Source of the DNA: Dehalococcoidia bacterium | GTDB lineage: Bacteria > Chloroflexota > Dehalococcoidia > Bin125 | Direction: 5' to 3' | Assembly: GCA_965203775.1 (NCBI GenBank) | Contig: OZ241913.1 | Location: 2,832,015 to 2,896,014 of the forward strand | Length of the DNA: 64,000 nt | Shown: positions 1,001-53,962 of the stretch, in pieces | How positions within the stretch are numbered: position 1 is the first letter of the stretch | Layout of the letters: each line of letters starts with the position of its first letter | The notes under the pieces: generated by a model | What the model saw: only the letters and a program-made list of their open reading frames with translations | The model's database searches: none | Told to the model about the DNA's origin: nothing | Position numbers and translations under genes: made by a program

Positions 1001-1015
1001 CGGCTCAGCCCCGCG

Positions 1016-1936: not shown

Positions 1937-1979
1937 TGTGCTCCCGTCGTTTTGGGTCTGTGTGGTCGTGCCGGCGCGC

Positions 1980-2970: not shown

Positions 2971-3030
2971 GGCGCACTCCCCTCAGGATCGCTCAGGCTG
3001 GCACAGGTCGGTACAGGTGGTTTGGGCGCA

Positions 3031-3846: not shown

Positions 3847-3934
3847 GCAGGCTCGCGCTCCCCAGTCGCTCACGGCGTGCCGCGTGGGCTGCCCGCAGAG
3901 TAGCGGAGGGCCGTGTTTGGCGCGCGGGCGCTCC

Positions 3935-7021: not shown

Positions 7022-7108
7022 GGGGGACAGTGTAGCGGGTTTGGGGCGGTGCGGGAACGGACGTTCGGAGTCGCTGCTCAGATGCGCGCGAGTCGTAGAC
7101 TGTTCGGC
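7022..7108. promoter_or_regulatory. divergent intergenic region between the MTase-domain gene and gatB (probable divergent promoters)
   Basis: An 87-bp gap between divergently oriented starts. No motif was identified with confidence. Confidence 0.25.
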
Positions 7109-8620: not shown

Positions 8621-8627
8621 AGCGAGT

Positions 8628-11537
8628 ATGGCCGCGCAGCCGACCCAGACGACGATGACGATCGAGCCGTCGATGAGCGTCGACGAGTTCGTTGCCAAGT
8701 GGCGCAACGCGGCGCCGCGCGAGCGGGCCAACTCGCAAACTCACTTCAACGATCTCTGCGCCGTGCTCGACGTCGCCACGCCCGTCGAGGAAGACCCCAG
8801 CGGCGAGAGCTACACATTCGAGAAGCACGTCGATCTGCCCGGCGGCGGCAGCGGCGACGCCGATGTCTGGAAGCGCGGGCACTTCGGCTGGGAGTACAAG
8901 TCGGGCGGCAAGAGCCTCAGCGTCGCCTACGAGCAACTGCTGGGCTACCGCGAGGGGCTGGAGAACCCGCCGCTGCTCGTGGTCTGCGACATGAACCGCT
9001 TTGAAATCCATACCAACTTCACCAACACCGAGCCGCGCGTGATCGAGTTCACGCTCAAGCACCTGGAAGAAAATCCCACCCACTACATTCGGCTGCTGCG
9101 CGAGGTGTTTCTCGATCCCGAAGCGCTGCACCCGAATCGCGACCCGCGCTATATCACCGAAACCGCCGCAGCAAAGTTCGGCGAGGTGGCCGAGGCGCTG
9201 CGCGAGCGCGACGGGCACGACCCGGCGCTTGTCGCCCGCTTCCTCAACCGAATCATCTTCTGCTTCTTCGCCGAAAGCGTCGGCCTGTACCGCAATCTGC
9301 GCGGGGCAATCGAGAAGCCGGTCACCGATGTGTTCGACAACATGTCGGCCGACGCGACGCTGTCCAAACGGATCGTGGGGCAACTCTTCGAGGCGATGGC
9401 GGAACGCGACGTGCGCAACTTCGGCGCCTACTACATCCGCTGGTTCAACGGCGGCCTGTTCGACGAAACGGCGGTGCCCGAGACGTTGCAGCTGACGGGC
9501 GATCTGGCGCAGATCATCAACGAGACGGCGGAGTTGAACTGGTCGCGGGTGGATCCGGCGATCTTCGGGACGCTGTTCGAGCGCGGGCTGGATCCCAAGC
9601 GCCGCTCGCAGCTGGGCGCGCACTACACCGATCCGGACAACATCATGCGCGTGGTCGAGCCGGTCGCGCTGCGCCCCCTGCGCCGCGAATTCGACGCGCT
9701 GCGCGCCGAACTCGCGCCCGAACACAGGCTCGAAGACGCGCCGCCGCCCGGTTACGGCGAGAACAGCGCGCTGGCTTTCGAAGCGCCCGACCCCGACTCC
9801 CCCGCCGGGCGCATCCACGCCTTCCACCAACGCCTCGCGGCGGTGCGCGTGCTCGACCCCGCCTGCGGCTCCGGCAACTTCCTCTACATCGCAATGCGCG
9901 AGCTGAAAAACCTCGAACAGGAACTGATCGAGTGGGCGCAGCGCCTGGGCGTCAACGGCTTGCAGCGCCGCATCGGCCCCCAAAACATGCTCGGCATCGA
10001 TATCGACCCGTTCGCCGCCGACCTCACCCGTATGTCGCTCTGGATCGGCTACATCCAGTGGAACATCGAGCGAAACATCGACACCACCCGCGACCCCGTC
10101 CTCGGCCGCGCCGAGCAAATCGAATGCCGCGACGCCATCCTCGCCGAGGATGAGGAGGGCAACCCCATCCCCGCAGAGTGGCCCGAAGCGGAGTTCGTCG
10201 TGGGGAATCCGCCGTTTCTGGGCGGAAACCGATTACGCCGCGAGAGCGGCAATGCGTACGTTGACCGTCTTCAATCTGCCTACGCCAACGCCGTAGGCGG
10301 ACAAGCCGACCTTTGCGTCTATTGGCACGAGAGCGCTCGACGACAGATCGAGCAGCGCGCCACCCGCGCTGCTGGCCTCCTTGCCACGAACAGCATAGGC
10401 CAACCGTACAACCGCAAGGTCCTCGAGAACATCGCATCATCGGGAGGCATGTTCTTCGCGTGGCGTGATGAGCAGTGGTTCGACGACGGTACTGCCGTCC
10501 GCATTGCCATCGTCGGCCAAGACGACGGCAGCGAATCGGAACTCGAGCTCGACGGATCGCCAGTCGCCAAGATCAACCTCGATCTGACCGCAGGCGTCCC
10601 GGTTGCGTCAGCTGTGGAACTGGCTGAAAATTCCTCTATCGCGTTTCGGGGTGTTGGGCCTGCTGGACCATTTGACATCTCCTGGACCATTGCCGGGCGC
10701 ATGCTGGCGCGTCCCGTCAACGTGAATGGACGCCCGAATTCCGATGTGGTGATCCCGTTCGTCAACGCTCAAGACCTGGCGCAGACACGGCGGGGACAGC
10801 ACGTCATCGACTTCGGTCAGAGTACATCTATCGAAGACGCGGCTGACTATGAGGAGCCGTTCGAGTACGTGAGGCGACACGTTCTGCCGCGCCGCAAGCG
10901 CAGCAGGAACGACCAACTGCGCAACCAATGGTGGCTCCACGAGGCTTGGCGTCCCGGGATGCGCAAGGCGATCCAGCCGCTCAGTCGCTTCATTGCCACG
11001 CCAGTGACTTCCAAGCACCGCTTCTACGTGTGGCTGGATGCTGGCACACTGCCTGCCAGCTCAGTCAACGTCATAGCTCGTGACGACGACTACATATTCG
11101 GGGTTCTGCACTCGCGAATCCACCACGTTTGGGCTCTTGCGCAGGCAACACGCCTCGGTGTCGGGCCAGCAGACTCCCGCTACATCCACACTCGGTGCTT
11201 CAACACATTTCCGTTCCCTTGGCCACTGACGGCGTCCAACGATGATCTTACGGCCACTCAGCGACGGCAGCACAAAGCGATCTCCGCCGCGGCTGCATCG
11301 TTGGACGCAGCACGCACCCAATGGCTTAACCCCAGTGATGCGCCAGCGGAGCTCGTGCAAGAGCGCACGATGACCGACCTCTACAACGACACCGAAAAAG
11401 ATCCTCGCCCAAAGTGGCTGACCAACAGGCACCAGGCGATCGACAAAGCAGTGGCAGCCGCCTACGGCTGGCCCGCCGACCTGCCGGATGATGAAATCCT
11501 GTCCCGCCTGCTAGCCCTGAATCTGGAGCGCGCCTGA
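8628..11537 (+). CDS. MmeI-family type IIL restriction-modification enzyme (fused PD-ExK nuclease + gamma N6-adenine MTase + TRD), 969 aa
   Basis: Colinear with MmeI: nuclease D..EYK (HVDLPGG...FGWEYKSGGK vs MmeI VDLFW...LIEMKSRG); helical region (RIIFCFFAESVG); motif X (PAIFGTLFERGLDPKRRSQLGAHYTDPDNI vs PAIFGSLFQSIMDAKKRRNLGAHYTSEANI); motif I (VLDPACGSGNFL); motif IV (VVGNPPFLGG); C-terminal TRD. The start lies 8 bp after the gatB stop. Confidence 0.85.
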   Translation: MAAQPTQTTMTIEPSMSVDEFVAKWRNAAPRERANSQTHFNDLCAVLDVATPVEEDPSGESYTFEKHVDLPGGGSGDADVWKRGHFGWEYKSGGKSLSVAYEQLLGYREGLENPPLLVVCDMNRFEIHTNFTNTEPRVIEFTLKHLEENPTHYIRLLREVFLDPEALHPNRDPRYITETAAAKFGEVAEALRERDGHDPALVARFLNRIIFCFFAESVGLYRNLRGAIEKPVTDVFDNMSADATLSKRIVGQLFEAMAERDVRNFGAYYIRWFNGGLFDETAVPETLQLTGDLAQIINETAELNWSRVDPAIFGTLFERGLDPKRRSQLGAHYTDPDNIMRVVEPVALRPLRREFDALRAELAPEHRLEDAPPPGYGENSALAFEAPDPDSPAGRIHAFHQRLAAVRVLDPACGSGNFLYIAMRELKNLEQELIEWAQRLGVNGLQRRIGPQNMLGIDIDPFAADLTRMSLWIGYIQWNIERNIDTTRDPVLGRAEQIECRDAILAEDEEGNPIPAEWPEAEFVVGNPPFLGGNRLRRESGNAYVDRLQSAYANAVGGQADLCVYWHESARRQIEQRATRAAGLLATNSIGQPYNRKVLENIASSGGMFFAWRDEQWFDDGTAVRIAIVGQDDGSESELELDGSPVAKINLDLTAGVPVASAVELAENSSIAFRGVGPAGPFDISWTIAGRMLARPVNVNGRPNSDVVIPFVNAQDLAQTRRGQHVIDFGQSTSIEDAADYEEPFEYVRRHVLPRRKRSRNDQLRNQWWLHEAWRPGMRKAIQPLSRFIATPVTSKHRFYVWLDAGTLPASSVNVIARDDDYIFGVLHSRIHHVWALAQATRLGVGPADSRYIHTRCFNTFPFPWPLTASNDDLTATQRRQHKAISAAAASLDAARTQWLNPSDAPAELVQERTMTDLYNDTEKDPRPKWLTNRHQAIDKAVAAAYGWPADLPDDEILSRLLALNLERA

Positions 11538-26628: not shown

Positions 26629-29600
26629 CTAGTTGCCTAGCACGATTACGGAGCCGGGGGCGATTTGGAAGTTGGTGGCGCCGGGGATGGGGATGCCGGC
26701 GATCACGTTGTAGCGCAGCCAGACGCCGTCGGAGCGCCAGAAGAGCACCGAGTTGATGCCCAGCAGCTCCGCGACCAGCTCCGCCGCGCTGATTGGCTCG
26801 GCGCCCAGCCAGGTGTTGAAGCCGACGATTGCGCGGTTGCCCAAGTCGCCCGCGACGCCCGGCAGGGGCGGCGGCGGGGCCGTTGCGCCGTTGGGCAGGG
26901 GCACCGTGAGCAGCTGCACGTCGCTCACCGCGCACTGCGAGGTGCGCGCTTCCGCCGCGCCCGGCGCGTCTTCGGCGGCCGTGTCAGCGGCCGCCTGCGC
27001 GCCGCAGTTTGCGCCCGCCGTGACCACCACGCTGCCCGGCGTCACGACCAGATAGCTCGCCGTCGCCTGGCCGTCGGTGGTTGTGCGCTGGCGGGTCAGC
27101 TCGACGAGCACGACCGCGGCGCCCGTGGGCGTGCTGGACCACTCAACCGGCGTGCCGTTGGGCACCCGCGCGTCGTTCGCGTCGGTCAGCGTCGCGGTGA
27201 CCGTCAGCTGGTCGCCCACGCTGGGCGCGCCGTCGGGCGCGCTGAGCGCGACCGCCGCGGGCGGCCCGGCGACCATGAAGGTCTGCCGCCCGGTCAGCGA
27301 GCCGGCGCGCAACTCGATGGTGTACTCGCCGTTGGCCAGCGGCTGGGTCGACGCGCGGTTGACGTTGATTCGCACCTGCTCGTTGCGGTTGCCGTCGAGC
27401 GTCGGGCTGTCCGCCCCGCCCAGCGGCCACTCCACCGTCACGCCGCTGCTGACCAGCTTGCCGTCGGGATCGAGCACCCGCGCCAGCGAGCGGCCCGAGG
27501 GCAGCGCGACTTTCATCCCGTTCTCGTCGGCTGCGGTGACCGCCAGCGTCAGCTGGTCGCGGTGGTCGGTGTCGGTGCCGGCTTCTTCCGCACCTTCCGT
27601 CGATTCGGCGTTGATGTTGAGCACGCCGCTCTTGGGCGCGGCGATGCCGACTGAATCGGCGCTGCCCAGGAACATCACGGTGATCGGGCCGGCGGTGAGC
27701 GCTTCGCCGTTGTCCTTGGTCAGCCGCACGCGCAGCTCGGCGCTGCTCGCCGTCGAGCCGCCGGGGTGGGTGATGGTGACGTCGATCTTGTCCGAGTTGG
27801 CGCTGGTCAGCGACGCGACGGGAATTTGGCAGATCAGCCCGCCGCTGTTGCGGCAGCCGCTGCCGATGGTGGTGCCGAGCGAGCCGGCGCTGGTGGTGAC
27901 GAAGATGGTGTTGATGGTGGCGGGGGCGGAGGCGGTGCCGCCCTCGTTGAGCACCTTCAGCCGCAGCCGGGTGCTCTGGCCGGTGGCGATGCTGGACGGA
28001 TACGGCTGGCCGCGCCGCGCCACGACCGTCTGCTCGGCGAAGCCGAACTGCAGCGCCGCGACCTCCTCGAACGTGGCCGGATCGATCACCTGCACGGCGT
28101 AGGCTTCCGACTTGACTTCGGCGCCGTTGATGTTGAGCGTGCCGGAGATGGCGAAGTCGCCCAGCTCCGCGCCGGCGGGGATCACGATGTCGGCGTTGCC
28201 CAGGTCGATCGAGCAGGTCCACAGCGTGATGCCGGTATCGCCGGAGCCGCGGCACTCAGCGCCGCCGGTCGTCCAGTCGCTCGCGCTGGAGCCCACGAAG
28301 CCCTGGCCAAGCGGCATCTGCTCGCGGAGCAGCGCGGCGCGCGAGCGCGCCGTCACGCCCGGTATGCCCGTGTAGGTGTTGCGCCCCGTCGCCTCCCACT
28401 CGAGGTCGCCGGCGATCCGCAGCGTGCCGCCCGTCACATGCAGCGCCGAATCCAGGCCGTCGCCCGGACCGCTGAAGGTCAGCACGCCGCGCAGCCGCGC
28501 GGTCGAGCCGACCGCCGCCATGTTGTCCGAATCGTCGGCCAGCCGCAGGCTGAACGCCAGATCCTCGGGCAGCGCGGCATACTCCTCGCCGACGTTGAAC
28601 CACGCGATGTCGATCGGGTGATCATGGCGAGTCCGGATCGTTTGGTCGAACGTCTGCTGGAAGATGCCGCTCCCTACGGTCACGGTCCTGGTGTACGAGC
28701 TGCCGCGACGGGCAATCACGTAGCCCTGGCCTGCGGCGTCGACGTCAAAGGTGTACTCCGCTTTGCCGGCGGGATCGTCGCCGCCCAGCGTCGGCGTTGT
28801 CGAGTATGTGATGGTGCCGTCGCCGTACTTCGAGAGCACCGTCTGGCCGGCCGTCGCCGGAACGCCGCCCTCGTCCCAGAACACGTGGCTGCCATCCGGC
28901 ACCGGCTCGCCCTCGGCGTCGGTCAGCGCGGCGGTCAGCTTGATGGTGGAGGTGTCGTCCGGATCCAGGAGCTGCCAGCGCTCCTGCCCCGTCGCTCGCT
29001 CCAATTCGAGGCCGACCGTCGCTCCATCGCCGGTCGCGGCGGTCTGGTCCGTCTCGAAGTAGACGGAGGCGCTGGCGTCGCCGGCGCTGGCGATCACCAG
29101 CACTTTGTTGTTGCTGGCCTGCGTTGGGACGCGCGCGAACGTGGCCTCGGCGACGCCGCCGGTGGTGGTCTGGTCGGCCGCGCTGGCCCGCCACAACTCC
29201 GCATCCAGCTCTGCCGCTCCGCTGAAGCCGATCGCCCGCCAGGCGACGGGCGTGCTGTCGGGCATGGCGCCGCCGTTGGCGTCGGTCACCAGCGCCTGGA
29301 CGGTGAAGCGGCCCGAGGTGCGGCGCTGCTCGAGGGGCGCGACGACCCAGACGCGGCCCGGCTCGGACAGCACCGCGGAGGCGGTTTGGCCGGTCTCGAC
29401 ATCGAGGCTGTCGCTTGCCGGATCGCGCGTTCCGGCGACGGCCGTGGCCGTGATCGTGACGCTGCCTTCGGAGAGCACGCGGAAGACGCCCCAGGCGCGT
29501 CCGTTGCTGTCGGTGCGGGTGGTCTGGAAATTGCCCCTCGCCTCGACGATGCAGGGCTGGACGGGGCACGTGACGGGATCACCCGACTCACCCGTGGCGG

Positions 29601-29955
29601 CCACCTGCCAGGTCACCGTTGCGCCGTCGGCGTAGTCGGGGACGAGCACTCCCTCGTCCTCGCGGCCGGCCTTACAGACGCGGAAACCGCCTGGTTCTGC
29701 AGCGTCGCCGCTGCATTCTAAGGTCGAGCCGGTCTGCACCCGCGCTTCGACGTAGAAGTAGCTCCAGAGGGCGAGCGAGCCGACCGGCTCGCTAAGTGTG
29801 ACTGTCGCCGGGGCGACTCGAATCTGCTGCGCGCCCGCGCCGGGCGAGAGGGCGAGCAGGGCGGCGGCGGCCAACAGCGCGAGCAGCGCCGCCGACACCC
29901 AACGCGCTCCCCCCCCCGCCACGGCGGAACCGGCTCGTTTGACAGGCAGCATCAA
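26629..29955 (-). CDS. giant secreted protein with multiple bacterial Ig-like (Big/invasin-like) domains, 1108 aa
   Basis: Signal peptide MMLPVKRAGSAVAGG...LLALLAAAALLALSPGAGAQQ. Recurring ~90-aa beta-rich repeats (…LTVTATLTDANDARVPNGTPVEWS…). The C-terminal ~65 aa are shared with the proteins at 33689..37249 and 62370..>64000. Confidence 0.75.
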   Translation of the reverse strand: MMLPVKRAGSAVAGGGARWVSAALLALLAAAALLALSPGAGAQQIRVAPATVTLSEPVGSLALWSYFYVEARVQTGSTLECSGDAAEPGGFRVCKAGREDEGVLVPDYADGATVTWQVAATGESGDPVTCPVQPCIVEARGNFQTTRTDSNGRAWGVFRVLSEGSVTITATAVAGTRDPASDSLDVETGQTASAVLSEPGRVWVVAPLEQRRTSGRFTVQALVTDANGGAMPDSTPVAWRAIGFSGAAELDAELWRASAADQTTTGGVAEATFARVPTQASNNKVLVIASAGDASASVYFETDQTAATGDGATVGLELERATGQERWQLLDPDDTSTIKLTAALTDAEGEPVPDGSHVFWDEGGVPATAGQTVLSKYGDGTITYSTTPTLGGDDPAGKAEYTFDVDAAGQGYVIARRGSSYTRTVTVGSGIFQQTFDQTIRTRHDHPIDIAWFNVGEEYAALPEDLAFSLRLADDSDNMAAVGSTARLRGVLTFSGPGDGLDSALHVTGGTLRIAGDLEWEATGRNTYTGIPGVTARSRAALLREQMPLGQGFVGSSASDWTTGGAECRGSGDTGITLWTCSIDLGNADIVIPAGAELGDFAISGTLNINGAEVKSEAYAVQVIDPATFEEVAALQFGFAEQTVVARRGQPYPSSIATGQSTRLRLKVLNEGGTASAPATINTIFVTTSAGSLGTTIGSGCRNSGGLICQIPVASLTSANSDKIDVTITHPGGSTASSAELRVRLTKDNGEALTAGPITVMFLGSADSVGIAAPKSGVLNINAESTEGAEEAGTDTDHRDQLTLAVTAADENGMKVALPSGRSLARVLDPDGKLVSSGVTVEWPLGGADSPTLDGNRNEQVRINVNRASTQPLANGEYTIELRAGSLTGRQTFMVAGPPAAVALSAPDGAPSVGDQLTVTATLTDANDARVPNGTPVEWSSTPTGAAVVLVELTRQRTTTDGQATASYLVVTPGSVVVTAGANCGAQAAADTAAEDAPGAAEARTSQCAVSDVQLLTVPLPNGATAPPPPLPGVAGDLGNRAIVGFNTWLGAEPISAAELVAELLGINSVLFWRSDGVWLRYNVIAGIPIPGATNFQIAPGSVIVLGN

Positions 29956-30099
29956 CCACGCTCCTCACACCGGCCGGCGCCGCATCGGGGCAACGCCGGC
30001 TGTACGGCAGACTCAGGCAGGATACAGCATCCCCGCCAGGCAGGCGCAACGCGCCAACTCCACTATGTCCGCAGGCTACAGCCCCAATCGGCAGCCCCC

Positions 30100-30640
30100 C
30101 CCCCCCCCGGCGAGATTTGACACTCTCTTTACACCGTTCCGCCACTCCCTACTTCCCGCTCTCCCCTCCCCCAATTCATCCCTCCCCCCTTTTAGGGGGG
30201 AGGTTAGGTGGGGGGTGGGAAGCCCCGAGCCGGCGCTGGCGGCCCTCTTGCACCGCGATCGCCTCGCCCGCGTTCCTGCCTGCGCAGGAATGACGAGTGG
30301 GGGGCGCAGGAATGACGGGCGGGCGCGGTTCCTGCCTGCGCAGGAATGACGGAGGAGGGGCGTGGGCGGCCACTCGATCGCTGGTGGACGCTCGGTGCCT
30401 CCCACCCCCCACCTAACCTCCCCCCTAAAAGGGGGGAGGGATGAATTTTCTTGGGGTAGGTGTTTTGGGGTGGGGAGGTGCTTGGTGTGCTGCGTGTGCG
30501 GTTCCTGCCTGCGCAGGAATGACGGAGGGGGCGCAGGAATGACGGAAGTGTGGAGCGCAGGAATGACGGGCGGGCGCGGCGGGTTCCTGCCTGCGCAGGA
30601 ATGACGGAGGAGGGGCGCAGGAATGACGGGAGTTTGGACA
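30100..30640. repeat. intergenic repeat island
   Basis: Family-B hairpins at ~30180 and ~30400 and family-A units throughout. Contains a poly-C/G run at 30100-30115. Confidence 0.8.
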
Positions 30641-30644
30641 GGCG

Positions 30645-31166
30645 CTAGCCGGCGGATGCTTCGGCCTCCTGCTCGCGGCGGTCGGCGCAGCGTCGGGCGG
30701 CGCGGCGGTAAGGCTGGTTGTCGGGCGGAGCGAGGTCGAGCGGCAGCGTGCGGTGGGCGTCGTCGAGCATTGCGCAGAAAGACTGGATGGTCGGCACCCA
30801 GAAGCGAATGTCATCCGGGTACTGAAGGTCGTCGTAGAAGTTCAGGTGCAGCCGTTCGGCGGCGGCGAAGCTGCGGCTGAGCTCGGGCGAGTCTGTGCCG
30901 AGCGCCTCGTCGATGCGCCGCACCAGCTGGTGGGCGATGCCGTGCTCGCAGTAGTACCACTCGCGGGCGTCCGCGAACACTCTGAGCCGGCGAGTGACTG
31001 CGCCCCACAATTTCTCGCACACTTGGGCGCGGAGTTCGCCGTCAATCTCTACATCCGGCCGCGCGAGGATCTCTTCTGCGGCGGCGAGCAGTCCGTCGCT
31101 GGTGCGGAGGTGCGGCTCAATCGGTGGCTGGGGCGGGCGGTAGGGGATTGGTTCGGGGGTGGGCAT
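30645..31166 (-). CDS. paralog-array protein 1 (173 aa), uncharacterized family with HEPN-like R-x6-H motif
   Basis: MPTPEPIPYRPPQPPIEPHLRTSDGLLAAAEEILARPDVEIDGELRAQVCEKLWGAVTRRLRVFADAREWYYCEHGIAHQLV.... Its start shares 1 nt with the stop of the upstream paralog (TAATG). Confidence 0.7.
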   Translation of the reverse strand: MPTPEPIPYRPPQPPIEPHLRTSDGLLAAAEEILARPDVEIDGELRAQVCEKLWGAVTRRLRVFADAREWYYCEHGIAHQLVRRIDEALGTDSPELSRSFAAAERLHLNFYDDLQYPDDIRFWVPTIQSFCAMLDDAHRTLPLDLAPPDNQPYRRAARRCADRREQEAEASAG

Positions 31167-31678
31167 TACTGCGCCTCCTGCGCGCGCCGGTCGGCGCAGC
31201 GTCGGGCGGCGTTGCGGTAACGCCGGCTGCTGGGTGGGGCCAGGTCGAGCGGCAGCCTGCGGTGGGCATCGTCAAGCATCGCGCAGAGGATCTGAACGAT
31301 TGACATCTGGCGACGGATCGCCGCCGGCTCCAGAAGGTCGTCATAGAAATTTCTATGCAGCTGTTCGGCGACGGCAAAGCCGCGGGTGAGTTCGGGCGGA
31401 TCGGGCTCAAGCGCCTCGTCAATGCGATCCACCAGATCGGCCGCGACGCCGTGTTCGCAGTAGTACCACTCCCGCGCATCCGCGAAGACCCGCAGGCGGC
31501 GAGTGACGGTGCCCCACAGTTTTTCGCAGGCTTGGGCGCGGAGTTCGCCGTCGATCTCGTCGTCGGGGCGGGCGAGGATCGCCTGCGCGGCGGCGAGCAG
31601 GCCGTCGCTGGTGCGGAGGTGCGGCTCGATGGGCGGCTGGGGCGGGCGGTAGGGGATTGGTTCGGGGGTGGGCATCAC
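31166..31678 (-). CDS. paralog-array protein 2 (170 aa)
   Basis: ~75% identical to array protein 1. Translationally coupled (GTGA/ATGA overlaps) on both sides. Confidence 0.7.
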   Translation of the reverse strand: MMPTPEPIPYRPPQPPIEPHLRTSDGLLAAAQAILARPDDEIDGELRAQACEKLWGTVTRRLRVFADAREWYYCEHGVAADLVDRIDEALEPDPPELTRGFAVAEQLHRNFYDDLLEPAAIRRQMSIVQILCAMLDDAHRRLPLDLAPPSSRRYRNAARRCADRRAQEAQ

Positions 31679-32208
31679 GTCGCCTCCTGCGCGCGCTGGG
31701 CCTCCTCTTGCGCGCGCCGGTCGGCGCAGCGGCGGGCGGCGCGGCGGTAAGGCTGGTTATCGGGCGGGGCGAGGTCGAGCGGCAAGGTGCGGTGGGCGTC
31801 GTCGAGCATCGCGCAGAGGGTTTGGACATTCGGCATCCGGAGGCGAATGTCATCCGGGTGCTGAAGGTCGTCGTAGAAATTCACGTGCAGTCGTTCGACG
31901 GCTTCGAATCGGAAGAGGAGTTGAGGCGGATCGACGCCGAGCGCCTCATCGATGCGATTCACCAGTTGATGCGCGATGCTGTGTTCGCAGTAGTACCACT
32001 CGCGGGCGTCGGCGAACACCCGCAGGCGGCGGGTGACGGCGCCCCAGAGCTTTTCGCAGGCCTGGGCGCGGAGTTCGCCGTCGATTTCGTCGTCGGGGCG
32101 GGCGAGGATTGCTTGGGCTGCCGAGAGCAGGCCGTCGCTGGTGCGGAGGTGCGGCTCGATCGGTGGCTGGGGCGGGTGGTAGGGGATTGGTTCGGGGGTG
32201 GGCATCAT
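31675..32208 (-). CDS. paralog-array protein 3 (177 aa)
   Basis: Same family, with a 4-nt start/stop overlap. Confidence 0.7.
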   Translation of the reverse strand: MMPTPEPIPYHPPQPPIEPHLRTSDGLLSAAQAILARPDDEIDGELRAQACEKLWGAVTRRLRVFADAREWYYCEHSIAHQLVNRIDEALGVDPPQLLFRFEAVERLHVNFYDDLQHPDDIRLRMPNVQTLCAMLDDAHRTLPLDLAPPDNQPYRRAARRCADRRAQEEAQRAQEAT

Positions 32209-32717
32209 CGCGCCTCCTGTGCGCGCCGCTCGGCGCAGCGGCGGGCGGCGCTCTTGTAGCGGCTGTTGTCGGGCGGGGCGAGGTCGAGCGGCAATGTGCG
32301 GTGGGCGTCGTCGAGCATCGCGCAGAAGGACAGCACGCTCCGCATCCGGAAGCGAATGTCATCCAGGTCCATGAGGTCCTCGTAGAACCCCTCGCGGTGC
32401 AGCCGTTCGGCGCTGTCGAATCTTTCGACGAGTTCGGGCGGATCGAGATCAAGCGCCTGGTTGATGCGATTCACCAGCTGGCGTGCGATGCTGTGTTCGC
32501 AGTAGTACCAGCGGCGCGCGTCGGCAAACACCCTGAGGCGGCGGGTCGCCGCGCCCCACAATTTCTCGCACACTTGGGCGCGGAGCTCGCCGTCGATTTC
32601 GTCGTCGGGGCGGGCGAGGATTGCCTCGGCGGCGGCGAGCAGGCCGTCGCTGGTGCGCAGGTGTGGCTCGATGGGCGGGCGGGGCGGGTGGTAGGGGATT
32701 GGTTCGGGGGTGGGCAT
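32205..32717 (-). CDS. paralog-array protein 4 (170 aa), first gene of the array
   Basis: Same family (MPTPEPIPYHPPRPPIEPHLRTSDGLL...ARRWYYCEHSIARQLV). It is preceded by a repeat island. Confidence 0.7.
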   Translation of the reverse strand: MPTPEPIPYHPPRPPIEPHLRTSDGLLAAAEAILARPDDEIDGELRAQVCEKLWGAATRRLRVFADARRWYYCEHSIARQLVNRINQALDLDPPELVERFDSAERLHREGFYEDLMDLDDIRFRMRSVLSFCAMLDDAHRTLPLDLAPPDNSRYKSAARRCAERRAQEAR

Positions 32718-32749
32718 CGCTGCTCCTGTTCGGCAGGGCGCATGGGCAG

Positions 32750-32890
32750 CGTATCACCGCGCGTTCCTGCCTGCGCAGGAATGACGGGGAGGAGGGGCAG
32801 GAATGACGATTGGGGGGCGCGGGTTCCTGCCTGCGCAGGAATGACGGGGAGGGGCGCGCGGTTCCTGCCGGCGCAGGAACCAACGGAGGC
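32750..32890. repeat. short repeat island (family-A units)
   Basis: Four family-A copies: gttcctgcctgcgcaggaatgacgg. Confidence 0.8.
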
Positions 32891-32894
32891 GTCC

Positions 32895-33251
32895 CTAGCC
32901 CCCGCCGCGCGCAATCAGCCAGCCGAGCATGGCGAGGTTGGACCCTGCCAGCAGACCAACCGCCCAAGTCAGCATCGTGAAGCGGCGGTCGGTGCTCTCT
33001 TTGAAGTCGTCGAAGCGTTGGTTGACGTTTTCCTTGAAGTCGCTGAAGCGTTGCCCCAGAGCTTTCTGCTCCTGCTCGAGGACGATCAGGTGCTGCTCAA
33101 CACCGTTGAGGCCCTGCTCAAGGTCCTTCTGGCCCTGGCGCAGATCGCGCAGGCCGTCGTCAAGGTGCGTGAAGCGCCGGTCGAACTCCGCCGAGCGGCG
33201 CTCGAATTCGTCGCGGTGGACGAAGGGGGGTTGCTCTTCTGCGGTGACCAT
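32895..33251 (-). CDS. hypothetical tail-anchored coiled-coil protein (118 aa)
   Basis: Internal RF(S/D)DFKE(N/S) repeats, then a C-terminal TM helix WAVGLLAGSNLAMLGWLIARGGG. Good codon usage. Confidence 0.5.
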   Translation of the reverse strand: MVTAEEQPPFVHRDEFERRSAEFDRRFTHLDDGLRDLRQGQKDLEQGLNGVEQHLIVLEQEQKALGQRFSDFKENVNQRFDDFKESTDRRFTMLTWAVGLLAGSNLAMLGWLIARGGG

Positions 33252-33688: not shown

Positions 33689-36600
33689 GTGAAGCTGATC
33701 CACACCGTTCTCGGGGGGGGGGGGGATACCGCCCGCCTGCTCGCGCTGGCTTCGCTGCTGGCGCTGCTCGCCGCGGCGCTGCTGCCGCTCGCGCCCGCCG
33801 CCGCCGACGGGCACCCCGACAGCCTCGGGCTGGAACTGGCGCTCAGCCTCGACGACGACTCCGACAACATCGTCCAGGCCGGCAGCGAAATTACGGTCAA
33901 GGCCGAGCTGCGCTTTCCCTGGCAACGCGCCACCGCGCCGCCCGCCGAGCTGCCCAGCTACACCGCCTATTCGCTCGATGTGCCGGCCGCCTCCGTGGCC
34001 GCTTCCAATCTGCGCATCAGCGGCAATCTGGAGTGGGACAGCGCCGGCCGCCGCCGGTTCGACATCCCCGCCCACTCGCCGCTGAACTCCGACCTGCCCT
34101 GGCCGCCCGTCACCAACCAACTCATGATCAAGGGGCTCGACGGGCGCACCCTCATCGCACGCGACAACCGCACCAGGATCCACATCTACGACTCCTACAC
34201 GCTCGAGTACAAGACGACGCTCGCCCCGCCGCCCGGCGCGGACACCCACCACAACAGCGGCTTCGGCGCTTCCGTCGCCTACAACTCCCGCAGCTTCGGC
34301 GCATGGTTCGGCAAGGCGATCGCCGTCTGGCACGAAACCGAGGACCGCGCCTGGCTGTTCGTCGGCTCCTGGGGCGACACCGTGGAATCGCACGGCGGGA
34401 TGGGCCGGCTTTACATCTACCGGCTGGACTGGGACGGTGACAGCGTGACGGCGACGCAGGAAGCCGCCCTGGCGCCGACGCTGGCCGAGGCCAATAACCG
34501 CCACGGCACCGCCGTCGCCCACTACGGCGCAGCCGTCGATCTCTCGCGCGACGGCGGCACGCTGGCGGTCAGCGCCACCCGAATGAACGTGATGGGCGCG
34601 GTCTACGTCTACACCCGTCCCGACGGCGCGGGCGAAGACTGGGGCGACATCACCTACGCCGACGGGGTCAAGGTGACCGTCGGCGCGGTGCCGTCCTTTG
34701 GCACCACCCAGTCGAACATGCCGTTCCTGCCCAACACGGCCTACAGCGCGAGCAACCCGCGCTCCTGCGGCGACTGGTGCGCGATGGTCTGGTCCAGCGT
34801 GGCGACGAGCGGCTACGACGGCGTCGACCTCGGCGCGCAGCGGGTGTCGCTCTCGGCCGACGGGAGCGTGCTGCTGGTCGGCGCGGGCGAAAAGGAGCAC
34901 CCGGTAACCAGGCCGTACTCCAGCGGCAACCGGAAGGACAACGCGGGCGAGGCGTTCGTCTGGGTCGCGCCCGAGGGCGGCTGGGCGAACGCGCCGCGGG
35001 CGGACCTTGACGCCAACGGCAACGCCAAGACGCTGATCGCGGCCAAGACCGACGCGACCGCCTTCCGCCGCGCGACGCACTACTCGCCCGGCCCGCTGCG
35101 CCGGGTGACCGAGCCCGCCGCCGTGCTGGTCGCCGCCGACTGGCCCAACCCGGGCAACGGCTACTTCGGCCTCGACGCCGTGATCTCGCCCGACGGCTCC
35201 ACCGCCGTTGTGGCGGGCGATCTCGTTCACGTCTTCCAGCGCGACTCGGCGAGCGATTGGGCCAGCGCCAACGGCGGCTACCGCGGCTACCTGGCGCCCA
35301 GCGCCACGCTCGGCAACACCGGGGAGGCGGCTTCCGCGACGATGCAGTTCAGCTTCGACGGGAGCGAGCTGGCGATCGGCCTGGTCGCGCATTCGAGTCC
35401 GTCATGGAGAGTCGGTGCGATCCGGGTCTTCTCCCGGCCGGAAGACGGGACCTGGGCCAGCACCAGCGCATCGAGGCTGTTGCAGGAGCGGGATGGCGTG
35501 AGGAGCGGCAGCGCGAGGTACGGCAATGTCGTCCCGGAGCTCACCGGCCGGCGCGTGGCGATCGGCACTCAAGCGGCGGGGCGCAACTATCTGAACACGC
35601 TGACCGCGCGCCGCTGCACGCTGCGCACGCTCGACGGCATCACCACCGCCACTTGCCCGATCTATTTGCCCAACTCCACGATCATCATCCCCGAGGGCAC
35701 GCCCGACGGGCCCGTCAGCATTCAGGCAACCGTCGCCCTGCGGCTGGCCGCGACCACCCGGGAGATGCCGACGACCGTGACGCTGAGCGACACGCTGGAG
35801 TTGACGGTCGGCGAGGTCGATGAGTTGACCGAGGTGGAGTTTGATTTCGCCACGGACACGCGGGGCGACAGCGATTCATCGAATGATCGTCCCTATCCGG
35901 GCGCGATCGCGGCGGGGGAGAGCACGACGCTGCTGCTGAAGCTGCTGAACGAGAACGGCAAGGCGGCGGCGAAGGGCGCGGCGGCGTCGGTGCTGTTCAC
36001 CACCAGTTTGGGCAAGCTGAGCGCGAAGCTGGGCGGCGCCGACGCGGAGGCCTGCACCGCAGGCGGCGGGCAGACCTGCCGCATCGCCACCCCGGCGACG
36101 GCGCTGACGGCGAGCAATTCGGATCAGATTCGGCTGACGGTGGAGCATCCGGGGGCGGGCCGGAGCGGCGCGGTGCTGGTGCGGGCGAATGTGCTCGCGA
36201 GCGACGGGGAGAGTTTCGCGGCGGAGCCGATTCGGCTGATTTTCAGCGGTTCGGCCAGCGCGATCGCGCTCTCCGCGCCGACCCGCGGGGTGCTCAGCCA
36301 CGACACCTGCGACGCGCCGGCGTCGGACGGCCCGGACGGCTGCAAGGTGGCGGGCGATCGGGATGATCGCGATGTGCTCACGCTGGAGGTCACGGCGACG
36401 GACGCGGCGGGCAACAAGGTGGCGGTGCCGAGCAGCGGCTACGGGGCGACGAAGATCACGGGGCCGGACGGCAAGCGTGTGCCCGACAGCGCGATCGCGG
36501 TGACCTGGCCGCTGCGCAAGGACGGCGACGACGCCGGCGCGGAGATCGGCAATAACGATCCGCTGGACACCAGTCTCGGCGGGGCGCCGCAGGCGCAGCT

Positions 36601-37249
36601 CAACGTCAACGCCGCGCAGTCCGCGCAGCTGCCGGCGGGCGAATACACGCTCGAGTTGGGCGTGGGCGCGTTGAAGGCGAGCCAGACGTTCAGCGTGAGC
36701 GGCGCGCCGGCCAGCGTGACGCTGATCACGACGCTGGCCGAGCTGTCGGTGCGGGACTCGTTCACGGTGCGCGCGCGGATTCTCGACGCGGGCGGGGCGG
36801 CGGTGCCGGACGGCACGCCGGTCAGCTGGAGCGCGACGCCGATCGGCGCGGCGTCGACGCTGGTCGAGACGGCCAGCGAGCGTCGGACGACGGGCGGGCA
36901 TGCGGAGGCGAGCTATCTGGTGGTGGCGCCGGGCCGCACTTCGCTGCGGGTCGCCGCGGGGGCGGCGGCGGAGCTGGCGCTGATCGAGGTGGCCGGCCCG
37001 CCCGCGCCGCCGATCCGCCTGGCGGATTTGCTGGCCAGCCCCAACCCGCTGGGCAGCAACATCTGGTTCGGCGACTTCTTCATCCGCGCCTCCGCGCTGC
37101 TGCGCGAGCTGCCCGACGCGGACGTGGTCCACGTCTGGCAGGGCAACCGCTGGTACCGCTACAGCGAGGTGGAGGGCGAGCAGGGCGAGGAGTCGATCGA
37201 TTTCACGATTCCGCCGAACGCCATCCTCTGGTTCGGGGATGATGATTAA
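33689..37249 (+). CDS. giant secreted protein: FG-GAP/beta-propeller-like N-terminal repeats + Ig-like (Big) domains + shared C-terminal domain, 1186 aa
   Basis: GTG start and signal peptide (LLALASLLALLAAALLPLAPAAADG). FG-GAP-like segments (LSRDGGTLAVSAT...GAVYVYTRPDG; LSADGSVLLVGAGE; ISPDGSTAVVAGDLVHVF). Big-like repeats (LTVEHPGAGRSGAVLVRANVLASDGESFAAEPIRL). The C-terminus aligns with 26629..29955 and 62370... Confidence 0.75.
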   Translation: MKLIHTVLGGGGDTARLLALASLLALLAAALLPLAPAAADGHPDSLGLELALSLDDDSDNIVQAGSEITVKAELRFPWQRATAPPAELPSYTAYSLDVPAASVAASNLRISGNLEWDSAGRRRFDIPAHSPLNSDLPWPPVTNQLMIKGLDGRTLIARDNRTRIHIYDSYTLEYKTTLAPPPGADTHHNSGFGASVAYNSRSFGAWFGKAIAVWHETEDRAWLFVGSWGDTVESHGGMGRLYIYRLDWDGDSVTATQEAALAPTLAEANNRHGTAVAHYGAAVDLSRDGGTLAVSATRMNVMGAVYVYTRPDGAGEDWGDITYADGVKVTVGAVPSFGTTQSNMPFLPNTAYSASNPRSCGDWCAMVWSSVATSGYDGVDLGAQRVSLSADGSVLLVGAGEKEHPVTRPYSSGNRKDNAGEAFVWVAPEGGWANAPRADLDANGNAKTLIAAKTDATAFRRATHYSPGPLRRVTEPAAVLVAADWPNPGNGYFGLDAVISPDGSTAVVAGDLVHVFQRDSASDWASANGGYRGYLAPSATLGNTGEAASATMQFSFDGSELAIGLVAHSSPSWRVGAIRVFSRPEDGTWASTSASRLLQERDGVRSGSARYGNVVPELTGRRVAIGTQAAGRNYLNTLTARRCTLRTLDGITTATCPIYLPNSTIIIPEGTPDGPVSIQATVALRLAATTREMPTTVTLSDTLELTVGEVDELTEVEFDFATDTRGDSDSSNDRPYPGAIAAGESTTLLLKLLNENGKAAAKGAAASVLFTTSLGKLSAKLGGADAEACTAGGGQTCRIATPATALTASNSDQIRLTVEHPGAGRSGAVLVRANVLASDGESFAAEPIRLIFSGSASAIALSAPTRGVLSHDTCDAPASDGPDGCKVAGDRDDRDVLTLEVTATDAAGNKVAVPSSGYGATKITGPDGKRVPDSAIAVTWPLRKDGDDAGAEIGNNDPLDTSLGGAPQAQLNVNAAQSAQLPAGEYTLELGVGALKASQTFSVSGAPASVTLITTLAELSVRDSFTVRARILDAGGAAVPDGTPVSWSATPIGAASTLVETASERRTTGGHAEASYLVVAPGRTSLRVAAGAAAELALIEVAGPPAPPIRLADLLASPNPLGSNIWFGDFFIRASALLRELPDADVVHVWQGNRWYRYSEVEGEQGEESIDFTIPPNAILWFGDDD

Positions 37250-37254
37250 GGGGG

Positions 37255-38005
37255 GGTCATTCCTGCGCCTCTCTCCGTCATTCCTGCGTAGGCAGGAACC
37301 CCCCGATCGCCCCCGCACCCGTCATTCCTGCCTACGCAGGAATGACGGGCGATTTCCCCAATTCATCCCTCCCCCCTTTTAGGGGGAGGTTAGGTGGGGG
37401 GTGGGAGGCCGCGAGCGAGCGCCGGCCGCCCGTTCGCGCCGCGCTCGCTTCCCCCCGTTCCGTACATTCCTGCCCCTTCTCCCCGTCATTCCTGCGCAGG
37501 CAGGAACCCGCGCGACCCCACCGTCGTACTCCTCCCCCCTCCGTCATTCTGCGCCCCTCCCCCGTTCCGTACATTCCTGCCCCCCTCTCCGTCATTCCTG
37601 TGTAGGCAGGAACGCGCGGTGGGTGCGGCCTCGTCCTGCGGTGGGCGTTCGGCGGGCCGCCGCGGGATGTGCGGCGCATACGGGCGCTAGCGGCCGCCCC
37701 CCATTCCTGCCTACGCAGGAATGACGGAATAGGCGATCGGGGTACAGAAGAGCGGCCGGCAAACGCTCGCACCTCCCACCCCCCACCTAACCTCCCCCCT
37801 TTTAGGGGGGAGGGATGAATTGGAGAAGTCAACCGTCATTCCTGCGTAGGCAAGGAGCCAGGGGAGGGGTCGCGCGGTTCCTGCCTGCGCAGGAATGACG
37901 GTGGGGTCGCGCAGGTTCCTGCCTGCGCAGGAATGACGGTGGGATCGCGCAGGTTCCTGCCTGCGCAGGAATGACGGGAGTCTGGACACGCCCTAGCCGG
38001 GGGAG
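37255..38005. repeat. intergenic repeat island (includes MITE-1 copy b at 37589..37727)
   Basis: Family-B hairpins at ~37370 and ~37790; family-A units; a MITE-1 with a TIR variant (cctgtgtaggcaggaac). Confidence 0.8.
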
Positions 38006-38009
38006 GCCA

Positions 38010-38507
38010 TCACTGCGCCTCCCGTGCGCGACGCGCGGCGCGGCGGTAACGCTGGCTGTCGGGCGGAGCCAGGTCCAGCGGCAAGGTGCGATGGGCCTCA
38101 TCGAGCATCGCGCACAGAGCTTGAACATTCGGCATCTGACGACGGATCCTTGCCGGCCTCAGAAGGTCGTCGTAGAAATTCACGTGCAGCCGTTCGGCGG
38201 CGGCGAACCTGACGCTGAGCTCGGGCGGGTCGGGCTCAAGCGCCTCGTCGATGCGATCCACCAGCTCGCCCGCGACGCCGTGCTCGCAGTAGTACCACTC
38301 GCGGGCGTGGGCGAAGACTTTGAGCCGGCGCGTCACCGCGCCCCACAGCTTCTCGCACACTTGAGCGCGGAGTTCGCCGTCGATCTCCGCGTCCGAGCGG
38401 GCGAGGATTGCGGCGGCTGCCGCCAGCAGGGCGTCGCTGGTGCGGAGGTGCGGCTCGAGGGGCGGCTCTGGGGGGAGGTAGGGGATTGGCTGGGGGCTGG
38501 CCATCAC
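38010..38507 (-). CDS. fifth member of the paralog-array family (165 aa), stand-alone copy
   Basis: MMASPQPIPYLPPEPPLEPHLRTSDALLAAAAAILARSDAEIDGELRAQVCEKLWGAVTRRLKVFAHAREWYYCEHGVAGELV.... Flanked on both sides by repeat islands. Confidence 0.65.
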   Translation of the reverse strand: MMASPQPIPYLPPEPPLEPHLRTSDALLAAAAAILARSDAEIDGELRAQVCEKLWGAVTRRLKVFAHAREWYYCEHGVAGELVDRIDEALEPDPPELSVRFAAAERLHVNFYDDLLRPARIRRQMPNVQALCAMLDEAHRTLPLDLAPPDSQRYRRAARRAREAQ

Positions 38508-38529
38508 ATCGCCTCCTGTGTATGGCGCA

Positions 38530-39545
38530 TGGGCAGCGTATCACCGCCTGGGGGGCTGTTCGTCGCTTCTGCGCCCCTCTCCGTCATTCCTGCGCAGGCA
38601 GGAATGACGGGCGCCTTCCCCAATTCATCCCTCCCCCCTTTTAGGGGGGAGGTTAGGTGGGGGGTGGGAGGCTGCGAGCGAGCGCCGACCGCCCGTTCGC
38701 GCCGCGCGCTCAAAATCGTCATTCCTGCGCAGGCAGGAACCGCGCGACCCCACCGTCGTACCCCTCCCCCCACCGTCATTCCTGCGCCCTCTTTCCGTCA
38801 TTCCTGCGCAGGCAGGAACGCGCGGTGGGCGCGGCCTCGTCCTGCGATGGGCGTTCGGCGGGCCGCCGCGGGATGTGCGGCGCATACGGGCGCTAGCGGC
38901 CGCCCCCCATTCCTGCCTGCGCAGGAATGACGGAAAATGGCGCAGGAGTGACGGAGAGAGGGGGTAGGAGTGACGGGGAGAGAGGGGGTAGGAGTGACGG
39001 AAGAAGCAGGAGTGACGGGGAGAGAGGGGGTAGGAGTGACGGAATTGTGAAGCCCTTTGGGGGTTGGGGGAGTGGACACGATCGGTGCGCCCGCTCGGTA
39101 CGTCCCACCCCCCACCTAACCTCCCCCCTAAAAGGGGGGAGGGATGAATTGGGGAATTCAACCGTCATTCCTGCGTAGGCAGGAAGCCAGGTGTGTGCGC
39201 GCGCGGGTTCCTGCCTGCGCAGGAATGACGGAATTGCGAAGCCCTTGGGGGTCGGGGGAGTGGACACGATCGGTGCGCCCGCTCGGTACGTCCCACCCCC
39301 CACCTAGCCTCCCCCCTAAAAGCAGACCTTCGCGTAACCCCCAAATTCGGCGATGCAGGCCGATCGCCTCTATCTGGTCGGGTTGTCCACCACACAGCGA
39401 AATTCGGGGTTGCGCGAAAGTCTGCTAAAAGGGGGGAGGGATGAATTGGGGAAGTCGCCCGTCATTCCTGCGGAGGCAGGAAGCAGGGGTGTGAGTGCGC
39501 AGGTTCCTGCCTGCGCAGGAATGACGGAATAGGCGCGTGGATGCC
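38530..39545. repeat. intergenic repeat island (includes MITE-1 copy c at 38795..38933 and element X2 at 39322..39425)
   Basis: Family-B hairpins at ~38630, ~39110, ~39300 (interrupted) and ~39420. Tandem ggtaggagtgacgg units at 38960-39040. Confidence 0.8.
39322..39425. other. ~104-nt structured element X2, inserted in a family-B hairpin loop (candidate ncRNA or novel MITE)
   Basis: Closing stem gcagaccttcgcg/cgcgaaagtctgc (13 bp, different sequence from X1 but still complementary). Shares the core ccaaattcggcg...gccgatcgcctctatctggtcgg with X1. Flanked by ctaaaag duplicated. Confidence 0.5.
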
Positions 39546-53131: not shown

Positions 53132-53962
53132 ATGCCCGATACCGACGCGCTGTTCGAGCTGGCCTTCGGCTACGACCGCGACCTGCCGCTTGAGGTTGAG
53201 CGGCGCACGGTGCGCGAGGCGGACTCGCTCAAGCTTGAGCGGTTCGAGCTGAGCTCGCGCAACGAGCAGCGCGTGCCCGGCCTGCTGCTCTCCGACCCTA
53301 CCGTCGCGGGCCCGCGCCCGCTGGTGCTGGTGGGGCATCCCGGCACGCTCGACAAGGCGGCCGACTACGTGCTCTGGCCGGCGCAGCAGTGGGTCGCGCG
53401 GGGCGCGATCTGCGCCACGATCGATCAGGCCGGCCACGGCGAGCGGGCGCAGCGCCCGGTGACGATGGACGACTTCCGCAACTGGCCGATGCGCCGCCTC
53501 GACCAGTCGCTGCAAACGGCGGTGGATTGGATGCGCGCGCTCGACTGGCTCTCCACGCTGCCCGAGATTGACGCCGAGCGGGTCGGGTTCGTCGGCTTCA
53601 GTATGGGCGGAATGCGCGGGGCGCCGTTCGTCGGTCTGGATCAGCGGGTGCGCGCCGCGGCGTTCTGCATCAGCGGCGCGACCACGTTGGGAGGTTCAGA
53701 CTCGCCGGCCGCGCAGCTCGCGTCGCGGCTGACCGACCCCGGCGTCTACGCGCCGATGACTGAGGGGCGGCCGATCCTGGTGGTCGCCGGCGAGCGCGAT
53801 GATCTGGTCACGCCCGAAGCGACGCAGCGCTTCTACGACCTGCTGCCCGAACCCAGGGAGATCGTCTGGCTGCCCTGCGGGCACTGGGATTTCATGCCGC
53901 AGGGCATTGAGCCGGTCGGCCCGTTCCTGGAGCGCGCGCTCGCCTACGGCGATGCGAGCTAG
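53132..53962 (+). CDS. alpha/beta hydrolase (dienelactone hydrolase / acetyl-xylan-esterase-like)
   Basis: GFVGFSMGG nucleophile elbow, the acid in VVAGERDDLV, the His in LPCGHWDF. Confidence 0.75.
   Translation: MPDTDALFELAFGYDRDLPLEVERRTVREADSLKLERFELSSRNEQRVPGLLLSDPTVAGPRPLVLVGHPGTLDKAADYVLWPAQQWVARGAICATIDQAGHGERAQRPVTMDDFRNWPMRRLDQSLQTAVDWMRALDWLSTLPEIDAERVGFVGFSMGGMRGAPFVGLDQRVRAAAFCISGATTLGGSDSPAAQLASRLTDPGVYAPMTEGRPILVVAGERDDLVTPEATQRFYDLLPEPREIVWLPCGHWDFMPQGIEPVGPFLERALAYGDAS

Follow-up and report, generated by a model that had tools for sequence, protein, structure and literature searches.

A tandem array of PaREP1/PaREP8-family HEPN genes in a Dehalococcoidia bacterium

What are four small, overlapping, and closely similar genes doing beside genes for giant secreted proteins, and to which protein family do they belong? 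We addressed this question for a 64-kb stretch of contig OZ241913.1 from a Dehalococcoidia bacterium (the window, within which positions are given unless another locus is named), where four paralogs form an array and a fifth lies apart. The copies were numbered from 1 (the last gene of the array) to 4 (the first), with 5 denoting the dispersed copy (Table 1). A first-pass annotation had described them as a family that it did not recognize, either HEPN-like effectors or immunity genes for the giant proteins. We found that the five paralogs belong to the PaREP1/PaREP8 family (PF05942) of the HEPN-T clade and have the HEPN helical bundle.

Family, fold, and conserved residues

All five copies matched PF05942 ("Archaeal PaREP1/PaREP8 family") with E values from 1.5e-04 to 5.9e-07. 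The matches covered profile positions ~3 to 115 of 115, and two of the five exceeded the gathering score. A HMMER scan of 1.84 billion representatives returned 399 relatives at E <= 1e-3, and of 66 diverse relatives, 65 matched PF05942 (best E, 2e-24) and 11 also matched the classical HEPN model, PF05168. Most of the close homologs carry PF05942 in the precomputed annotation of their source database. Searched against the PDB, a family profile recovered 2jpu/2q00 (Sulfolobus solfataricus ORF c02003, the sole solved member of the family) with an E value of 1.7e-06, and in the resulting alignment QASEK paired with QACEK and slHqNFY with TLHVEgFH. Only the broader family profile reached 2jpu in this way; a PDB sequence search with the five copies alone returned nothing real, and one with a member that also matches PF05168 returned 2jpu only. 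The copies had no matches in NCBIfam, and a Pfam scan of the ten longest family members revealed no informative domain fusion.

The AlphaFold model of copy 4 (pLDDT, 90.7; pTM, 0.85) contains helices at residues 23-34, 43-67, 75-89, 95-112, 118-141, and 152-169, with a low-confidence Pro-rich tail in front of them. In a Foldseek search with this model, 2q00 ranked first (target-normalized TM-score, 0.71-0.72; probability, 1.00), and the HEPN toxins 8xdj, 5yep, 7ae2, and 6m6w were matched as well. These assignments agree with the literature, in which Pfam places PaREP1 in the KNTase_C/HEPN clan (PMC3710099) and Anantharaman et al. (2013) list Parep1/8 in the HEPN-T clade with the remark that it "lacks R but H is conserved" (PMC3710099). 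The earlier HEPN-like call is borne out by the Pfam match and by HEPN domains being the best structural neighbors, as is the HEPN fold that Foldseek had been expected to confirm or refute, with 2q00 as its top match. The family, in contrast, is not an unrecognized one but carries the name PaREP1/PaREP8.

We counted residue conservation in 191 relatives less than 50% identical to copy 4. The most conserved positions were W54 and N109 (98% each), E51, G55, H107, and Y112 (97% each), and Q48 and K52 (95% each), followed by R68 (93%), W70 (92%), and H75 (91%). Every copy of every array compared kept both QxxEKxWG and RxWxxxxH, and R68-x6-H75 is a real signature of the bacterial family. It had been taken for the HEPN RNase signature embedded in helices. 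The motif itself and its family-wide conservation hold up, but its position does not fit, since it lies at ~40% of the domain (residues 23-141), ~35 residues ahead of where the HEPN catalytic motif normally lies, whereas the classical Rx4-6H sits at ~75% of the domain length (its His is H107 in, for instance, the toxin 7ae2 of 141 aa). Nor is it embedded in helices in the model, where R68 comes directly after helix 43-67 and helix 75-89 opens with H75, so that the motif spans the loop between them. In the 2jpu alignment, nothing corresponds to it. The longer string AREWYYCEHG(I/V)A, described as strictly conserved, varies even within the array, reading ARRWYYCEHSIA in copy 4 and ending in CEHSIA in copy 3.

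The canonical position is occupied here by LH107-x-N109-F-Y112, with the variant LHREGFYE in copy 4, which is close to the archaeal LHVEGFHE of 2jpu. H107 pairs with the His of TLH in 2jpu; we equate it with the classical motif by sequence alignment and by its place along the fold. The H107 segment fits the published description of a family that lacks the Arg and keeps the His. In the AF0298 group, a second conserved His lies N-terminal of the classical motif and may form an alternative site (PMC3710099), and H75 may be the counterpart of that second His.

Organization, selection, and distribution of the arrays

The description of the locus as four head-to-tail paralogs of ~170 aa plus a fifth copy was upheld by the open reading frame (ORF) list, sequence identity, coding GC, and dN/dS alike. 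Pairwise protein identity to copy 1 was 74-82% (mean column identity, 82%), and nucleotide identity among the copies was 75-82%. GC content by codon position was coding-like (GC1, 0.72-0.77; GC2, 0.45-0.49; GC3, 0.82-0.86). Because dS between copies was 0.45-0.62 and dN/dS was 0.19-0.36, we regard the copies as old duplicates, each held under purifying selection, and not as chance ORFs or a recent repeat. This constraint was uneven along the protein, with dN/dS of 0.05-0.20 in the N-terminal half versus 0.34-0.94 at residues 77-131. Entropy peaked at residues 90-130, and separate mid-region subtypes are retained across genomes. Residues ~77-131 thus form a relaxed or diversifying patch, and the copies differ mainly in one surface patch at ~90-130. 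Plus-strand ORFs over the array (e.g., 31657-32259) were dropped as candidate genes, being antisense shadows of high-GC3 genes.

Table 1. Genes and sequence elements at and around the PaREP1/PaREP8 array of the window
Feature	Positions	Strand	Length	Evidence or remark
Copy 4, first array gene	32205-32717	minus	170 aa	ORF list; PaREP1-type HEPN protein, "LHREGFYED" subtype
Copy 3	31675-32208	minus	177 aa, counted from first ATG	PF05942, E 5.1e-05
Copy 2	31166-31678	minus	170 aa	PF05942, E 1.3e-04
Copy 1, last array gene	30645-31166	minus	173 aa	PF05942, E 1.5e-04
Copy 5, dispersed paralog	38010-38507	minus	165 aa	PF05942, E 1.2e-06, 28.9 bits
Leader GGTGATACGCTGCCCATGCGCC upstream of array	32737-32758	minus	22 nt	Alignment of upstream regions
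Leader GGTGATACGCTGCCCATGCGCC upstream of copy 5	38524-38545	minus		22/22 identical to leader of copy 4
Relic copy, fused to the array's usual trailer	37993-38010	minus	Five codons (MASPG-stop)	Compared with 3' end of copy 1
Giant gene 1	26629-29955	minus	1108 aa	Downstream of array, same strand, behind 689-bp repeat island
Giant gene 2	33689-37249	plus	1186 aa	Convergent with copy 5
Coiled-coil protein gene	32895-33251	minus		C-terminal hydrophobic segment

Overlaps between adjacent array genes had been given as 1-4 nt and measured either 1 or 4 nt. The junctions read gcgATGATG between copies 4 and 3 (AGGAGG at 32213-32218), GTGATG between copies 3 and 2 (AGGAGG at 31683-31688), and TAATG between copies 2 and 1 (AGGAGG at 31174-31179); in copy 3 the MPTPEP... 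reading begins at the second ATG, at 32205. Every AGGAGG box falls within the final codons of the upstream gene (RAQEA). The stop/start overlaps, together with a box placed 7 nt before each MPTPEP start, support translational coupling of the array members, as read from the junctions.

A scan for the two sigma-70 hexamers found no promoter, and a conserved leader emerged only when upstream regions were aligned. We examined 12 loci, where its core, GCGGTGATAcGcTG, stood 35-45 nt ahead of the first start codon of the array. For this and other comparisons we used loci from related and distant genomes, designated L001 to L029. The copies of L002 and L004 stand apart from one another, and each is preceded by the leader core; tightly coupled internal copies have no leader core. 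Within the TG-n-TAnnnT of the leader, T1, A2, and T6 are constant while positions 3 to 5 vary; because of this pattern, we infer that TG-n-TACGCT is probably an extended -10-like promoter, which would give the array a promoter of its own just inside the repeat island. The TACGCT of the array leader lies at 32748-32753.

Such islands, which are composite and intergenic, occur at 18.3-19.1, 24.1-26.6, 30.1-30.6, 32.7-33.7, 37.3-39.5, 46.4, and 60-62.3 kb of the window. One of their units is a 22-nt palindrome, TCATTCCTGCGCAGGCAGGAAC, with 56 copies in the window, and the second is a GC hairpin, CCTCCCCCCTTTTAGGGGGGAGG, at ~24 sites. They are genome-wide intergenic REP-like elements and not specific to the array. 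An Rfam search of the whole window returned no RNA family, for the islands or elsewhere.

The trailer common to copy 1 and the relic next to copy 5 reads CCGGCTAG.GC.TGTCCA.ACTCCCGTCATTCCTGCGC, with 3 mismatches in 38 nt. Because the MASPG-stop relic joins the same trailer as copy 1, the copy-5 locus is a contracted sister array.

Size differences among arrays were also found in other genomes. The close homologs (70-91% identity) fell into 140 clusters, all from metagenome assemblies, and among species-representative genomes the close subfamily occurred only in three Dehalococcoidia chromosomes that are metagenome-assembled genomes (3.2-3.3 Mb), at several loci each and often paired. The contig that carries the window is 3,419,949 bp long. 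Arrays in these relatives held 2 or 3 copies. At one syntenic locus, three genomes carried 1, 2, and 3 copies, respectively, and the flanks of the 2- and 3-copy versions were 95-96% identical. Because of these differences at a single locus, we conclude that the arrays grow and shrink by unit-length indels; variation in copy number between strains, raised earlier as a point to check, is real.

Distant members (25-37% identity), from other bacteria with GC contents of 56-62%, also occur in arrays. The largest, at L010 1-6492 (a 2.93-Mb contig of a different bacterium with 62% GC), comprises at least 14 tandem PaREP1 genes, one of them truncated, followed by genes for a very acidic 1120-aa Ig-like secreted protein (6660-10022) and a 341-aa coiled-coil protein (10146-11171). 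Elsewhere among the distant bacteria, we found five copies adjoining an Eco57I-like methyltransferase, three adjoining a Type III restriction-modification pair, two between McrBC-like and Eco57I-like genes, and two amid metabolic genes. Diverged members can also stand beside typical ones. In L008/L009, two genes at 9452-9917 and 10526-11140 (minus strand), whose products are 31-35% identical to the window copies and have RGWPNAGH and RGWPLTGH loops, flank a typical plus-strand copy at 9938-10501. Because of this arrangement, we conclude that these Dehalococcoidia genomes hold at least two deep subfamilies side by side. An obligate, toxin-antitoxin-like pairing of the "HxNFYDD" and "HR[ED]GFYED" subtypes was considered and rejected, as arrays can be of one type or mixed.

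Much of this picture is familiar from archaea. PaREP1/8 has been described as an expanded HEPN family found in tandem repeats and unlinked to minimal nucleotidyltransferase (MNT) genes (PMC3710099, PMC2701414, PMC3632139); in archaea, it never occurs in an operon with MNT (PMC2701414, PMC3632139). In Pyrobaculum, the family typically forms tandem arrays that have no MNT partner, and clusters of paREP1/8 mark regions that differ between species (PMC3558965). The genes described here resemble these in their Pfam match, their HEPN bundle, and their top Foldseek match (2q00), in the QxxEK motif of helix 2, the LH..GF[HY]E segment, and the loss of the canonical Arg, and in their lineage-specific tandem expansion, lack of an MNT partner, and location in regions variable between strains. 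They differ in that the host is a bacterium with 69% GC, whereas PaREP1/8 was characterized as crenarchaeal and "almost exclusively in thermophiles" (PMC3632139). Peculiar to the bacterial branch, in addition, are an invariant R-G/x-W-x4-H loop, N109, a Pro-rich N-terminal tail, and a basic C-terminal helix, and the RHH fusions reported for Pyrobaculum (PMC2701414) did not turn up in the family members scanned.

The family, its fold, its tandem arrays, and the absence of an MNT partner were therefore already known for archaea. What is new are bacterial, apparently nonthermophile expansions of up to at least 14 copies, together with the R-G-W-x4-H loop, N109, the Pro-rich tail, and the conserved leader. 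PaREP1/8 is not confined to thermophilic crenarchaea and has expanded independently in high-GC Dehalococcoidia and other uncultured bacteria, with array sizes that shift between near-identical strains. No new kind of system is revealed, but experimenters gain mesophile-like bacterial PaREP1 sequences, and the sharply defined invariant polar residues of the bacterial branch can be mutated directly.

Possible functions of the arrayed proteins

PaREP1/8 is one of the few large HEPN families to which no activity or partner has been assigned, and whether its members are toxins with an unidentified antitoxin is described in reviews as still undetermined (PMC3632139). We see about an even chance that these HEPN proteins target RNA on their own, probably as RNases that need no metal and use a noncanonical site, and that the paralogs differ in specificity and serve in conflict or stress. 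We infer the RNase activity, the defense or stress role, and the promoter function of the leader; the role in conflict or stress is suggested because of general HEPN biology (PMC3710099) and the restriction-modification neighbors in other lineages.

Under this interpretation, the region is a lineage-specific tandem expansion of a bacterial PaREP1/PaREP8 branch, each gene of which encodes a small cytoplasmic all-helical protein with a disordered but conserved Pro-rich N-terminal tail, an HEPN bundle at about residues 23-141, and a basic C-terminal helix. The array would be transcribed from its own short conserved leader with the extended -10-like element, its members would be made by translational coupling, and arrays would change size through unequal crossing-over. 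The proteins would act on RNA independently of MNT, most likely as metal-independent RNases in genetic conflict or stress, through a proposed noncanonical polar site in which H107/N109/Y112, standing where the HEPN motif usually lies, combine with the family-specific R68...H75 loop and with E51/K52 of helix 2. Having diversified, the paralogs could then differ in the targets or partners for which they are specific. A more elaborate version, which we hold only tentatively, is an HEPN conflict module without an antitoxin, in which co-translated paralogs, possibly as heterodimers, would use this composite site (R68...H75, H107/N109/Y112, E51/K52) and cover RNA or invader targets through the patch at 90-130, while unequal crossing-over would tune the repertoire of each strain. 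If that were true, a function would at last be assigned to PaREP1/8, a question dating from 2002-2013.

Several observations weigh against stand-alone RNases in conflict or stress. A toxin that stands alone would need some control other than an antitoxin. Neither the window copies nor their relatives have a conserved Arg 4 to 6 residues before H107, so that the Arg of the canonical Rx4-6H is absent. One distant member continues HLNFYKNNRYPD after the Y112 segment, and RYP is the Arg-bearing segment of PF05168; at this "RYP"-like position, which follows Y112, the window copies have Q, L, or M. None of the five copies matched any protein model of PADLOC-DB 2.0 (E <= 1), and no relatives were found in viral contigs, phage records, or plasmid records. 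Neighboring genes in Dehalococcoidia are mostly metabolic (CoA-transferases, P450, hydrolases, and DinB), and the defense-island context in this lineage is weak.

Some of these observations are equally what one would see if the proteins were catalytically inert HEPN scaffolds that bind nucleotide, RNA, or protein and work as adaptors, regulators, or antitoxin-like partners, a reading to which we give a minor but appreciable share of the probability. The missing Arg (PMC3710099) and the ordinary metabolic neighbors in Dehalococcoidia are in its favor. Many domains of the HEPN-T type bind substrate for a partner nucleotidyltransferase (PMC3710099, Table 1 therein), and the absence of an antitoxin is simpler to understand if the proteins are harmless. 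However, eight polar residues, including two His, one Arg, and one Glu, are 91-98% conserved below 50% identity, which is rare in purely structural four-helix bundles, and HEPN families with alternative conserved His and basic residues may still cleave RNA (PMC3710099).

The history of the arrays raises the further question of whether the genes are of use to the host at all. They could instead be selfish leader-plus-gene cassettes that persist by duplicating into repeat-rich intergenic sites with little host benefit. Dispersed copies do share a leader of ~45 nt, and those of the window have a trailer in common as well; near-identical strains differ in copy number; a relic lies beside copy 5 and a truncated copy in L010; and the Pyrobaculum clusters mark species-variable regions (PMC3558965). 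Nevertheless, every copy is under strong purifying selection at a dS of ~0.5, distinct mid-region subtypes are maintained across genomes, and no transposase, terminal repeats, or target-site duplications were seen. We therefore consider selfish cassettes unlikely.

Somewhat more unlikely still is that these are classical toxins of an MNT-HEPN system of the HepT/MntA kind (type VII; 5yep, 7ae2, 8xdj, and 6m6w), with the nucleotidyltransferase antitoxin encoded elsewhere in the genome. The fold does match the toxins of that system, and H-x-N-x-x-Y bears a loose likeness to HepT's RX4HXY (in 7ae2, H107 and Y109, as the name of its mutant shows). Nonetheless, RX4HXY is missing from the canonical site, and no MNT gene was adjacent at any of ~20 loci, as judged from Pfam lists without an NTP_transf_2-type gene and a motif scan of window and locus ORFs. 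The archaeal PaREP1/8 genes, as noted above, keep away from MNT operons (PMC2701414, PMC3632139). HepT/MntA is a two-gene module, unlike the many arrayed paralogs found here, and up to at least 14 toxin copies per array without an antitoxin do not fit toxin-antitoxin logic. The likeness to the broader HEPN-T domains of PF05168 (AF0298/2hsb, TT1696/1ufb, and sacsin HEPN/3o10) has similar limits. While 11 of the 66 family members match that model, PF05168 domains are usually paired or fused with an MNT, of which there is none here, and identity is 14-17%.

Giant neighbors and other features of the window

The surroundings of the array were as first described, with two giant genes, a repeat island, a coiled-coil gene, and copy 5 convergent with the second giant gene. 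The giant proteins have signal-peptide-like N termini and Big_1 or FG-GAP domains and form a multicopy family of their own. Their paralogs are conserved over the C-terminal ~570 residues, including the last ~70, and diverge in their N-terminal halves, the reverse of polymorphic toxins. A metagenome scan with a giant-protein alignment returned unrelated Ig-domain matches only.

A giant FG-GAP/Big_1 gene has a PaREP1 gene within ~1 kb at two places in the window and in L001, L005, and L007. Approached from the other side, none of four giant paralogs picked without reference to PaREP1 had a PaREP1 gene within 5 kb, and many PaREP1 loci have no giant gene, with CoA-transferase, hydrolase, or restriction-modification neighbors instead. 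The adjacency of the two families in one lineage exceeds random placement. The intergenic settings of both are rich in repeats, and joint duplication may have occurred; the adjacency is not an obligate functional pairing.

These results bear on the immunity reading of the first-pass annotation, in which the array would hold immunity (or orphan immunity) genes for toxin domains of the adjacent giant secreted proteins. Tandem, diverged small paralogs near large secreted proteins at some loci, including the 1120-aa Ig-like protein that follows the array of at least 14 copies in a distant lineage, do recall the immunity arrays of polymorphic toxin systems. We reject this reading as very improbable, because neither giant protein has a toxin domain at its C terminus or elsewhere (Pfam found only FG-GAP and Big_1), their C-terminal tips are not variable, the layout is wrong in both order and strand (giant gene 1 lies downstream of the array, and copy 5 is convergent with giant gene 2), arrays also occur at giant-free loci, and the independently chosen giant paralogs lack PaREP1 neighbors.

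Small coiled-coil (CCDC90-like/DUF16-like) genes precede several giant genes (L028 1586-2897, L029 3378-4637, and the coiled-coil gene of the window), because of which the latter may be an associate of the giant genes and not of the PaREP1 array. An exact-protein look-up of this gene returned no record. The idea that array, giant gene, and coiled-coil gene together form a conserved three-gene unit was dropped, as the coiled-coil proteins are unrelated between lineages.

Poly-G tracts were observed near the 5' ends of giant genes. In the window, a G13 tract at 33713-33725 lies inside the 5' coding part of giant gene 2, and on the minus strand a G9 tract at 29909-29917 lies inside giant gene 1 and a G14 tract at 30095-30108 lies ~140 nt upstream of it. 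Giant paralogs elsewhere have tracts at L028/L029 5028-5041 (G14), L026 4982-4992, and L027 4956-4967. The tracts could reflect slipped-strand phase variation or homopolymer noise in long-read assembly. In L007, a phage terminase large-subunit gene (2722-4098), which may be a prophage remnant, lies just upstream of the giant FG-GAP gene and the PaREP1 copy.

Genes related to defense were also seen at these loci. L019 has a Type II CRISPR-Cas system (Cas9, Cas1, and Cas2; 937-5301) ~4.5 kb upstream of the three-copy PaREP1 array of a close relative. The window contains a second tandem array, of three 215-aa Uma2-family (putative restriction endonuclease) genes at 53959-54606, 54662-55309, and 55366-56013 (minus strand), and Uma2 genes also flank the PaREP1 arrays in L010 and L011. 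Also on the minus strand, overlapping DUF4160 and DUF2442 genes (59470-59730 and 59723-60076) resemble a small module of the toxin-antitoxin type. Finally, an MmeI-type Type IIG restriction-modification enzyme of 969 aa (8628-11537, plus strand; PADLOC REase_MTase_IIG, E 9.5e-252) is encoded 19 kb from the array.

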